From: Escherichia coli
Lineage (GTDB): Bacteria; Pseudomonadota; Gammaproteobacteria; Enterobacterales; Enterobacteriaceae
DNA length: 64,000 nucleotides
Direction: 5' to 3' (one strand)
Assembly (NCBI RefSeq): GCF_003334785.1
Contig: NZ_QOWV01000004.1
Positions 58,137 through 58,836 of the stretch are shown piece by piece. The translations under genes were made by a program, and so were the position numbers. The notes under the pieces were generated by a model. It saw nothing but the letters and a program-made list of their open reading frames with translations, was not told where the DNA came from and searched no databases. Positions within the stretch are counted from its first letter, which is position 1, and every line of letters begins with the position of its first letter.

Positions 58137-58153
58137 TGTTTAGGTTTTGTTTA
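58137..58153 (+). promoter_or_regulatory. PhoP box (direct repeat TGTTTA-N5-TGTTTA) upstream of yrbL
   Basis: tgtttaggttttgtttaa seen at 58137-58153, about 50 bp upstream of yrbL ATG; matches the (T/G)GTTTA-N5-(T/G)GTTTA consensus. Confidence 0.55.
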
Positions 58154-58203
58154 AGTTAATCGACCATACTGGAGATCGTCAGAAAATATTTCCAGGAGAT
58201 GGC

Positions 58204-58836
58204 ATGATTCGCTTATCTGAACAAAGTCCCCTGGGCACCGGAAGACATCGGAAATGTTATGCGCATCCGGAAGATGCCCAACGCTGTATCAAGATTGTCT
58301 ACCATCGTGGCGATGGTGGCGATAAAGAGATCCGCCGTGAGTTAAAGTACTACGCGCATCTTGGTCGCCGGTTAAAAGACTGGAGTGGAATACCGCGCTA
58401 TCACGGTACCGTTGAGACGGATTGCGGAACCGGTTATGTCTACGATGTGATTGCAGATTTTGACGGCAAGCCTTCCATTACGCTGACCGAATTTGCTGAA
58501 CAATGCCGTTACGAAGAAGACATTGCACAACTGCGCCAGCTACTGAAACAGCTGAAGCGTTATTTGCAGGATAACCGTATCGTGACGATGTCGCTGAAGC
58601 CGCAGAATATCCTCTGTCACCGCATCAGTGAGTCAGAGGTTATCCCGGTCGTCTGCGACAACATTGGTGAAAGCACATTGATTCCACTGGCGACCTGGTC
58701 GAAGTGGTGTTGTCTGCGTAAGCAAGAGCGGTTATGGAAACGATTTATCGCCCAACCGGCGCTGGCTATTGCCCTGCAGAAAGATCTGCAACCTCGTGAG
58801 AGCAAAACGCTGGCCCTCACTTCGCGCGAAGCTTAA
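58204..58836 (+). CDS. yrbL: PhoP-regulated protein of unknown function, 210 aa
   Basis: ATG at 58204 ([26 protein letters not shown]); ORF-track start at 58147 is an extension spanning the PhoP box. Confidence 0.85.

Follow-up and report, generated by a model that had tools for sequence, protein, structure and literature searches.

The yrbL gene of Escherichia coli encodes a small protein that is predicted to adopt a minimal protein-kinase-like fold, and we propose, at a probability of roughly 0.4, that YrbL is an LPS-core-directed kinase-like enzyme, or an ATP-binding partner of such kinases, in a pathway of inner-core modification. The window, by which we mean the whole 64-kb stretch of DNA analysed, is from E. 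coli. Activation of yrbL by PhoP and its repression by PmrA/BasR are established, and the regulatory picture of the gene is already known. What is new here is the confident kinase-like model of YrbL, the covariation within its active site and the pattern of gene neighbours outside the Enterobacteriaceae. That the locus represents yrbL, a core gene of E. coli, under its known promoter, with activation by PhoP~P, repression by BasR and terminator-free convergence with mtgA taken together, is close to certain.

Identity of the locus and architecture of the yrbL promoter

The DNA of the locus is 100% identical to E. coli genomes, and the gene differs in nothing from yrbL (b3207) of E. coli K-12, whose product bears the name 'PhoP regulatory network protein YrbL'. 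RefSeq annotation of the identical E. coli locus places it between npr and mtgA, outside the waa cluster. The coding sequence (58204–58836; plus strand, as are all features of the gene and its promoter given below) runs from an ATG at 58204–58206 to a TAA at 58834–58836, specifies 210 amino acids and is preceded at 58194–58198 by a Shine-Dalgarno sequence, AGGAG, read off the DNA directly and set 5 nt ahead of the ATG. YrbL is a member of Pfam PF10707 and NCBIfam NF007671, passing the family threshold over its full length: a profile search matched PF10707 across residues 2–185 (E = 2.3e-67), and the NF007671 equivalog model scored 398.9 bits against a cut-off of 227. Because the NCBIfam model matched 1–210 of 210 residues, we take ATG 58204 as the true start. 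A longer, 229-residue open reading frame from TTG 58147 was rejected, since it begins inside the PhoP box and upstream of the inferred transcription start, and since homologues and the NCBIfam model begin at ATG 58204.

A preliminary description of this DNA had put a PhoP box about 50 bp before the yrbL ATG. A perfect box is indeed present, TGTTTA-GGTTT-TGTTTA at 58137–58153, in direct orientation and overlapping the −35 region, its end 50 nt from the ATG. It is the single match to KGTTTA-N5-KGTTTA on both strands of the window, and 100 dinucleotide-preserving shuffles gave 0 matches. The −10 hexamer CATACT (58165–58170) is the same hexamer, at the same 11-nt spacing from the PhoP box, as in the Salmonella promoter, and is nearly invariant in an alignment of enterobacterial yrbL promoters; the locus thus has what marks a PhoP-regulon promoter, a perfect (T/G)GTTTA-N5-(T/G)GTTTA box in direct orientation 11 nt from CATACT. 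In Salmonella, S1 mapping revealed a single PhoP-dependent start site with a 32-nt leader, and footprinting located the PhoP box 11 nt ahead of the −10 hexamer CATACT (PMC3335776); by homology, yrbL transcription in the window probably starts near 58172.

Control by PhoP, likewise put forward in the preliminary description, has been established experimentally through both PhoP binding and PhoP-dependent expression (PMC3335776, PMC5775216). Phosphorylated PhoP shifted a Shigella promoter with an identical box in EMSA, deletion of phoPQ in Shigella left yrbL expression at 0.02 of wild type (PMC5775216), and yrbL reporters in E. coli are PhoP-responsive (PMC13215669). The promoter resembles the architecture I, class II PhoP promoters (mgtA, phoP, slyB, pmrD and Salmonella yrbL), in which one direct PhoP box lies over the −35 region 11–12 nt from the −10, sharing their spacing and the CATACT −10. 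PhoP~P would bind 58137–58153 and bring about transcription from CATACT in low Mg2+ or under cationic-peptide stress. Finding the box is a rediscovery of a textbook member of the PhoP regulon, which adds no biology and shows that a reader of sequence can spot a real regulatory site.

A PmrA/BasR box, CTTAAG-AAAAC-CTTAAG, which did not figure in the preliminary description, lies at 58114–58130 and is conserved across genera; 6 nt separate it from the PhoP box downstream. It is the sole YTTAAK-N5-YTTAAK site in the window, where 0.11 matches are expected by chance. Co-regulation of yrbL by PhoP and PmrA has been reported (PMC2681069; PMC3335776), and in E. coli B populations whose BasR regulon was activated, yrbL was strongly down, being among the most repressed genes where eptA, arn, waaH and basR were induced (PMC13405929). 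PmrA/BasR bound to the CTTAAG-N5-CTTAAG box would repress yrbL. The adjacent BasR box is where yrbL departs from the class II pattern, and it makes yrbL, like pmrD, a promoter that PhoP activates and PmrA represses.

Further upstream, a block at 58078–58098 (TTGTACATTTTGTGCGCTTTT) is kept in most of 19 aligned enterobacterial yrbL promoters, and its 17-nt core has one exact match in the window, at 58078–58094. The intergenic region upstream of yrbL gave no signal of RNA structure (fold z = 0.19), and a search for structured RNAs, sRNAs or riboswitches at the promoter and at the overlap with mtgA returned no credible Rfam match, only SNORD37 at E = 0.87.

YrbL is predicted to be a minimal kinase-like protein with a rearranged active site

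YrbL had been described at the outset as having no assigned activity, which still holds in database entries and in papers from 2024–2026, and a structure prediction had been called for. The AlphaFold2 model (pLDDT 94.7) has a minimal protein-kinase-like fold that is predicted to be bilobal. Consistent with the model, PF10707 (YrbL-PhoP_reg) has been treated as a protein-kinase-like family and analysed together with the Pfam Kdo and WaaY families (PMC9758233). We found no solved structure of any YrbL family member, the best PDB sequence matches being generic Ser/Thr kinases at E = 5.6e-5 or weaker, and a Foldseek search of AFDB50 returned only unannotated YrbL-family models, identifying no nearest characterised family.

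The family profile aligns to DYRK2 at both the N-lobe and the catalytic loop, and residue conservation was counted over 112 YrbL family representatives. The ATP-binding lysine, equivalent to that of VAIK, is K30 (codon 58291–58293), which stands in 'CIK' within the N-lobe region of the profile alignment and is Lys in 110/112. The αC-helix glutamate is E46 (58339–58341; helix 39–56 of the model), with Glu in 106/112 and Asp in 6/112. The catalytic loop T128-M-S130-L-K132-P-Q-N135 (58585–58608) aligns to IVHLDLKPQNIL of STK17B and IIHCDLKPENIL of DYRK2, N135 being kept in 111/112, and the DFG-equivalent, Mg-binding loop is D152-N153-I-G155 (58657–58668), where position 152 is Asp in 98/112 and Asn in 10/112 and G155 is kept in 106/112. 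The ATP Lys, αC Glu, catalytic-loop Asn and Mg-binding Asp are therefore all present in YrbL, conserved in 98–111 of the 112 representatives.

The canonical HRD aspartate is absent from E. coli YrbL, in which Ser130 aligns with the catalytic Asp of STK17B and DYRK2. Among the representatives, 44/112 have Asp at position 130, which is variable (S/T/N/A/G) in the E. coli subfamily. Members without Asp130 nearly always carry D[N/D/S] or [N/S/T]D at positions 152–153 (66/68 vs 11/44 of those that have it; Fisher p = 1e-16), and this coupling between residues 130 and 153 suggests an active site that has been remodelled rather than one that has decayed. YrbL might instead be a pseudokinase that binds ATP or nothing and serves as a switch or scaffold, with neither phosphotransfer nor a link to LPS. 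A missing catalytic Asp is typical of pseudokinases, but K30, E46, N135 and D152 are kept almost universally, the coupling of the change at 130 to a specific change at 153 suggests a maintained active site, the enrichment of LPS genes around distant relatives (below) is left unexplained, and deletion of yrbL had no effect on PhoQ/PhoP signalling (PMC2789325); we consider a pseudokinase improbable.

YrbL as a Ser/Thr/Tyr protein kinase signalling downstream of PhoP is, in our estimation, highly improbable. In sequence and structure YrbL is best matched by eukaryotic-like Ser/Thr kinases, the Pfam Pkinase model matches weakly (E = 0.0019) and the candidate kinases listed for Bordetella include members of the family (PMC8076611). 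However, E. coli YrbL has no catalytic Asp, and only ~55 residues follow the DFG-like loop in the AlphaFold2 model, with no activation segment, APE motif or αF to αI helices; moreover, the gene contexts of relatives point to glycolipid synthesis. The minimal atypical kinases RIO1/RIO2, Bud32, NleH1 and HopBF1, which keep the catalytic Asp and act on proteins or within ribonucleoprotein complexes, share 13–17% sequence identity with YrbL.

The preliminary description also called YrbL Cys-rich in places. There are 8 cysteines among its 210 residues, and the stretches KWCCLRK (167–173) and 149–159, the latter containing the Mg-binding loop, are both present, but they do not form a conserved Cys motif. 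The only conserved cysteines of the family are C18 (79/112), on the strand after the Gly loop, and C28 (104/112), two residues before K30, both ATP-pocket positions. A Cys-rich metal or redox motif was rejected, C138 being kept in 20/112 and C151 in 5/112, and the CC pair at 169–170 being variable among close relatives.

Distant relatives of yrbL lie among LPS-core and surface-glycan genes

Outside the Enterobacteriaceae, 7 of 12 informative contexts of yrbL homologues, a small and non-randomly chosen sample, were LPS-core or surface-glycan clusters, often with WaaP/Kdo-type kinases alongside; of the other five, two had no envelope genes and three were ambiguous. In Sutterella and Parasutterella, three YrbL paralogues flank waaP and a GT4 glycosyltransferase gene, and PF10707 is the sole Pfam match of the Sutterella paralogue beside waaP. 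A YrbL relative in a gammaproteobacterial MAG adjoins a heptosyltransferase gene, gmhA and lpxB, and another (L055) adjoins a Kdo/WaaP-family kinase. The neighbours of a further relative (L059) comprise GT9, GT4, Wzy_C, a carbamoyltransferase, two Kdo-family kinases and GmhA, and a tandem YrbL fusion (L062) lies with GT9, three GT2 genes, GT90 and a lipid A acyltransferase. The waaC–waaF cluster of Arcobacter butzleri holds YrbL-PhoP_reg genes, according to a published figure legend. Location within an LPS-core cluster is seen for 7 of the 12 informative distant homologues and not for E. coli yrbL.

One relative (L050) lies in a LicD / nucleotidyltransferase / Wzy / Wzz locus, an arrangement that brings to mind a small-molecule kinase, acting on an amino alcohol or free sugar, whose product, as with LicA, would be nucleotide-activated and passed on to a surface glycan. 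Yet this relative retains the catalytic Asp (IIPMDLKPQN), unlike E. coli YrbL, no nucleotidyltransferase or transferase gene adjoins E. coli yrbL, and the informative contexts are for the most part core-oligosaccharide clusters, not lic-like loci. We regard such an activity as distinctly unlikely.

The company of waaP, Kdo-family kinase and heptosyltransferase genes is one likeness between YrbL and the LPS core kinases. Another is that WaaP (RfaP), WaaY (RfaY) and Kdo kinase are, like YrbL, small cytoplasmic proteins of kinase fold. YrbL is nevertheless a separate sequence family, without a catalytic Asp in E. coli: no RfaP or InaA model matched it at E ≤ 1, and hhalign of YrbL against Sutterella WaaP gave a probability of 23.6%.

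Mutations in yrbL arise under cationic-peptide selection

In a selection for resistance to a cationic peptide, second-site mutations beside envZ arose in basS, rfaY or yrbL (V149L), the rfaY mutation being a premature stop in a gene that the authors link to LPS biosynthesis (PMC9241736). A later selection yielded YrbL E42G, which alone raised resistance slightly (PMC11842939). Both E42 and V149 adjoin active-site elements, and the E42G and V149L alleles may or may not be loss-of-function. Deletion of yrbL left Shigella invasion unchanged (PMC5775216). A role for YrbL as a feedback regulator of PhoQ/PhoP was rejected, since PhoP output is unchanged in the deletion (PMC2789325). We found no LPS phenotype of a yrbL mutant reported in the searchable literature.

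yrbL and mtgA converge without a terminator

The convergent partner of yrbL is mtgA (58833–59561, minus strand), which encodes a monofunctional peptidoglycan glycosyltransferase and whose start shares 4 nt with the end of elbB. The stop regions of yrbL and mtgA overlap by the 4 nt TTAA (58833–58836), as had been noted from the sequence and as is seen in both the reading frames and the RefSeq annotation of the identical E. coli locus. The same 4-nt overlap occurs in 15 of 29 enterobacterial loci, and an overlap or a gap of ≤7 nt in 25 of the 29; the gap reaches 104 nt in Salmonella and other genera. Neither a consensus scan nor a hairpin-plus-U-tract scan found an intrinsic terminator downstream of yrbL or mtgA in either direction, and because no terminator stands between the convergent genes their transcripts would read into each other. 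A catalogue of convergent excludons present in ≥50% of 58 E. coli transcriptomes includes the pair (PMC12288877), which resembles other excludons in its convergence, its lack of a spacer and its overlapping transcription in public RNA-seq data. Reciprocal regulation of yrbL and mtgA would be a further, hypothetical likeness.

An effect of yrbL on mtgA through transcriptional collision, as the preliminary description had envisaged, is only a possibility. That this convergence is the important feature of the locus, PhoP-driven yrbL transcription lowering mtgA through RNA-polymerase collision or antisense pairing, we hold to be very unlikely. The 4-nt overlap, the absence of an intrinsic terminator downstream of either gene within its partner, the tight juxtaposition across enterobacterial loci and the entry in the excludon catalogue all speak for it. 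However, the main text of the Shigella phoPQ study, where yrbL changes 50-fold, makes no mention of mtgA; REP-like spacers of 74–104 nt separate the genes in Salmonella and some Citrobacter; the property is generic, being common to 165 E. coli gene pairs (PMC12288877); and the YrbL protein is present and strongly conserved in 5426/5426 genomes, which argues that the product itself matters.

Discussion

Our preferred reading places YrbL in modification of the LPS inner core. YrbL would be small, basic and soluble and would bind ATP and Mg2+; its protein-kinase-like fold would be pared down to an N-lobe, the catalytic loop and the DFG-like loop, lacking an activation segment and the substrate-binding helices of the C-lobe. 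It may phosphorylate a core sugar or phosphate by means of a rearranged site, in which Ser130 stands in for the catalytic Asp and Asn153 sits beside the Mg-binding Asp152; alternatively, it may be an ATP-binding partner of the core kinases. PhoP would then raise, and BasR lower, an LPS modification bearing negative charge.

In favour of this reading we count the AlphaFold2 fold, the conserved K30, E46, N135 and D152, the covariation of 130 with 152–153, the 7/12 contexts, the yrbL mutations under cationic-peptide selection and the repression of yrbL alongside induction of the BasR regulon. Against it we count the absent catalytic Asp, the position of E. coli yrbL outside the waa cluster, the lack of an RfaP or InaA match, the low hhalign probability and the deletion that affects neither Shigella invasion nor PhoQ/PhoP output. 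To our knowledge, the known E. coli core phosphates are already accounted for by WaaP and WaaY, which also counts against it.

A more specific form of the LPS-core proposal, which we think unlikely, is that YrbL proteins of the E. coli type ('type B') function as active LPS-core kinases without the canonical Asp, working through a remodelled TM[S/T]xK...N / D[N/D]xG site. Such an Asp-less site might suit a phosphate or an already-deprotonated acceptor. Similarly doubtful is that type B YrbL is the source of an overlooked PhoP-induced, BasR-repressed, charge-adding modification of LPS, which would account for the yrbL mutations that arise alongside those in rfaY and basS under cationic-peptide selection.

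Universally conserved in E. coli, YrbL has been in use as a PhoP reporter for two decades without an activity being assigned to it. Should the inference from kinase fold and LPS clusters hold, YrbL would gain a concrete activity in the control of envelope charge, which governs resistance to polymyxins and host cationic peptides, and the YrbL family would be a kinase family split into canonical and Asp-less active-site types.

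Identity and regulation of yrbL

The segment 57900-59000 was matched in 5426/5426 complete E. coli genomes, with npr, yrbL and mtgA annotated beneath it, and the window DNA is E. coli chromosome. By ORF reading, yrbL runs on the + strand from ATG 58204 to TAA 58834-58836 and mtgA on the - strand at 58833-59561, the convergent genes sharing the bases TTAA at 58833-58836. In RefSeq, an identical locus has a 633-nt yrbL CDS that shares 4 nt with the mtgA CDS. The longest ORF begins at TTG 58147, within the PhoP box; this was not accepted as the true start, as alignment to the NCBIfam equivalog model covers residues 1-210 of 210 from the ATG, 5 nt before which lies a + strand Shine-Dalgarno sequence, AGGAG. 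The preliminary description had reported this 4-nt overlap of stops, an upstream repeat fitting the PhoP box and Cys-containing peptides (found in YrbL as quoted), and its observation was confirmed in every particular. Gene order npr-yrbL-mtgA is fixed throughout the Enterobacteriaceae and is uninformative on function. The flanking same-strand junctions rapZ-npr (57718-57721) and elbB-mtgA (59558-59561), each a 4-nt ATGA start/stop overlap, are ordinary translational-coupling junctions.

The direct repeat TGTTTA-GGTTT-TGTTTA (58137-58153, +) ends 50 nt before the yrbL ATG and is a perfect PhoP box. Scanning both strands, we found it to be the single match to (T/G)GTTTA-N5-(T/G)GTTTA in the 64-kb window, and 0/100 dinucleotide-preserving shuffles contained one. 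That PhoP acts through this box is borne out by published experiments. In Salmonella, one PhoP-dependent start site was mapped and the box footprinted 11 nt upstream of the -10 hexamer CATACT, the promoter being grouped with those of mgtA and phoP as 'architecture I', class II (PMC3335776). Phosphorylated PhoP shifted a Shigella promoter fragment whose box is identical to that of the window, and phoPQ deletion reduced yrbL expression to 0.02 of wild type (PMC5775216); E. coli yrbL reporters are likewise PhoP-responsive (PMC13215669). The window has the same CATACT (58165-58170, +) at the same 11-nt spacing, which by homology would place the transcription start near 58172.

A second element, overlooked in the preliminary description, is the BasR box CTTAAG-AAAAC-CTTAAG (58114-58130, +), 6 nt upstream of the PhoP box and the sole PmrA/BasR-type repeat in the window. 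Like pmrD, yrbL is described as PhoP-activated and PmrA-repressed (PMC2681069, PMC3335776), and its repression ranked among the strongest of any gene in E. coli B adapted to iron, where the BasSR regulon was activated (eptA, arn, waaH and basR up; PMC13405929). The identity and regulation of the gene are certain. An alignment of 19 enterobacterial yrbL promoters shows the BasR box and the -10 to be no less conserved than the PhoP box, which is degraded to CGTTTA-N5-CATTTA in Citrobacter and others. Most of these promoters also keep a block, TTGTACATTTYGTGCGCTTT (58078-58098, +), about 20 nt upstream of the BasR box, whose 17-nt core pattern has one exact match in the window (58078-58094). A search of the block for RNA structure or an Rfam match returned none; it may be bound by a further regulator. 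It contains ACATTTTG, which we take to be common to OmpR-type sites.

The yrbL-mtgA junction

Across 29 enterobacterial yrbL-mtgA loci, the genes overlap by 4 nt in 15 (Escherichia, some Citrobacter, Pseudocitrobacter, Superficieibacter, Siccibacter and Intestinirhabdus) and by 26 nt in 4; gaps of +1 to +7 nt separate them in 6 and of +47 to +104 nt in 4. The long gaps of Salmonella and C. amalonaticus contain REP-like palindromes. Between the two genes, Salmonella and one C. amalonaticus strain carry 74-104 nt (L013 4634-4707, L016 4634-4716 and L010 4634-4737), with the palindromes GCCGGATAAG...CATCCGGC and GCCTGATAAGCG. Since these insertions split the junctions, the 4-nt overlap of E. coli is likely to be the uninterrupted state. 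The long Salmonella gap also agrees with published work in which a cassette was placed in an intergenic region between the two Salmonella genes, 37 bp beyond the stop of yrbL and 28 bp beyond that of mtgA (PMC3261920).

No intrinsic terminator was found downstream of yrbL or mtgA across the whole of the respective partner gene, and a published list of 165 convergent 'excludons', each present in 50% or more of 58 E. coli MG1655 transcriptomes, includes the pair (PMC12288877), so the transcript overlap is real and already catalogued. The convergent arrangement might matter mainly through interference with mtgA; however, overlapping transcription is generic, this being one pair among 165, and the main text of the Shigella phoPQ study, where yrbL shifts 50-fold, does not mention mtgA. 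We regard control by collision as a minor possibility.

Fold and active site of YrbL

Pfam assigns YrbL to PF10707 (E = 2.3e-67) and matches it weakly to Pkinase. A published analysis treated PF10707 as protein-kinase-like, together with Kdo and WaaY (PMC9758233). The family is a large one, and 1036 representatives (50% identity clustering) scored E <= 0.001. Its members include a 470-aa methyltransferase-YrbL fusion (L047 6001-7413, P0142) and YrbL-YrbL tandems some 416 aa long, of which one lies in an LPS-core cluster (L062 6001-7251, P0121). A 420-bp contig of the Tannerella forsythia ATCC 43037 assembly (L029, NZ_JUET01000135.1) encodes the first 129 YrbL residues at 98% identity to E. coli and is almost certainly E. 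coli contamination. To our knowledge, all named organisms among the AFDB structural matches of YrbL are Gram-negative.

There is no solved structure of any PF10707 member; by sequence, the PDB entries that match best are Ser/Thr kinases, aligning on the catalytic loop (YrbL versus STK17B, IVHLDLKPQNIL; versus DYRK2, IIHCDLKPENIL). AlphaFold2, given 130 sequences, models YrbL with confidence (pLDDT 94.7, pTM 0.88) and predicts an N-lobe of five strands and an alpha-C helix (residues 39-56), followed by the catalytic loop and then a DFG-like loop. Past the latter the chain has no more than about 55 residues, so YrbL would lack an activation segment and protein-substrate-binding helices. That it is a protein kinase, as its PDB matches are, is very improbable.

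Conservation was scored over 112 full-length representatives, including the E. coli protein. The ATP-binding K30 (110/112), alpha-C E46 (106 Glu and 6 Asp), catalytic-loop N135 (111/112) and Mg-binding D152 (98 Asp and 10 Asn) are retained, as is T72 (112/112). The canonical catalytic Asp position, S130 in E. coli, holds Asp in only 44/112 and S, T, N or A in enterobacterial and Sutterella orthologues. Where Asp130 is present, residues 152-153 are 'DG' in 33/44; where it is absent, they are D[N/D/S] or [N/S/T]D in 66/68 (Fisher p = 1e-16, not corrected for phylogeny). E. coli YrbL, with TMSLKPQN ... CDNIG, therefore falls in a distinct 'type B' active-site class. Judged from this covariation, loss of Asp130 is non-random, and the site looks remodelled and maintained rather than simply decayed. 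YrbL, described as Cys-rich in places, has 8 Cys in 210 residues, of which only C18 and C28, at ATP-pocket positions, are conserved; the Cys-containing peptide overlapping D152 is the Mg-binding loop. Adjoining the Ser that substitutes for the catalytic Asp, residue 129 is polymorphic: codon 129 (58588-58590) encodes Met in the window, against Ile in P0001, which represents E. coli YrbL among clusters at 90% identity.

Gene neighbourhoods of YrbL relatives

LPS-core or surface-glycan clusters surround 7/12 informative non-Enterobacteriaceae contexts, a small and non-random sample. The gut Betaproteobacteria Sutterella and Parasutterella have three paralogues each (L039 3286-7110, L033 3962-7171) around waaP and a GT4 glycosyltransferase gene: two are type B and share about 50% identity with E. 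coli YrbL, and the third, divergent and immediately beside waaP, keeps the canonical Asp. This high identity with the enterobacterial protein hints at horizontal transfer between gut lineages. Elsewhere, relatives adjoin heptosyltransferase, gmhA and lpxB (a gammaproteobacterial MAG), a Kdo/WaaP-family kinase (L055), or lie among GT9, GT4, Wzy_C, carbamoyltransferase, two Kdo-family kinases and GmhA (L059); the L062 fusion follows GT9, three GT2 genes and GT90, with a lipid A acyltransferase next. An Arcobacter butzleri waaC-waaF cluster also includes YrbL-PhoP_reg genes, according to a figure legend (PMC6477937).

In the remaining glycan cluster, a Wzy/Wzz locus (L050 4952-8933), the order is lic-like, namely LicD, YrbL-family protein, nucleotidyltransferase and permease; this member keeps the catalytic Asp and occupies the slot expected of a LicA-type choline kinase. 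That YrbL itself is a LicA-like small-molecule kinase is nevertheless quite improbable. Three of the 12 contexts are ambiguous and envelope-flavoured (a sulfatase-superfamily gene; a PAP2 phosphatase with a two-component system; a carbamoyltransferase), and 2/12 have no relevant neighbour genes.

A proposed role at the LPS inner core

Published alleles connect yrbL with cationic peptides. Selection with TAT-RasGAP317-326 mutated envZ in all four independent E. coli lines, three of which carried one extra mutation each, in basS, rfaY (premature stop) or yrbL (V149L), and the highest MIC belonged to the line with both envZ and yrbL mutations (PMC9241736); YrbL E42G, from a later selection, slightly raised resistance by itself (PMC11842939). 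The alpha-C helix starts at E42, and V149 is on the strand directly preceding D152. Deletion of yrbL left PhoQ/PhoP output (PMC2789325) and Shigella invasion (PMC5775216) unchanged.

Because of the fold, the conserved ATP and Mg residues, the neighbourhoods, the BasR antagonism and these alleles, the most economical reading has the LPS inner core as the target of YrbL, and to this we assign a probability of about 0.4. YrbL would act there as a kinase whose catalytic arrangement is unusual or, alternatively, as an ATP-binding partner of LPS-core kinases, its product adding negative charge to LPS that PhoP would increase and BasR decrease. Against this stand the missing catalytic Asp, the small and non-random sampling of neighbourhoods and the position of E. 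coli yrbL outside the waa cluster; unlike WaaP and InaA proteins, YrbL has no membership of those families detectable by sequence, and the searchable literature reports no LPS phenotype for yrbL. A pseudokinase unrelated to LPS would fit the absent Asp and would not explain the recurrent LPS-core contexts; we consider it unlikely.

The yrbL gene, its PhoP box, the overlap with mtgA and the overlap of transcripts are already documented, and we did not find the Asp-less type B site with its covarying residue or the recurrent LPS-core neighbourhood in the searchable literature. Together, the type B site and the LPS-core neighbourhood provide a directly testable hypothesis for a long-unassigned member of the PhoP regulon.
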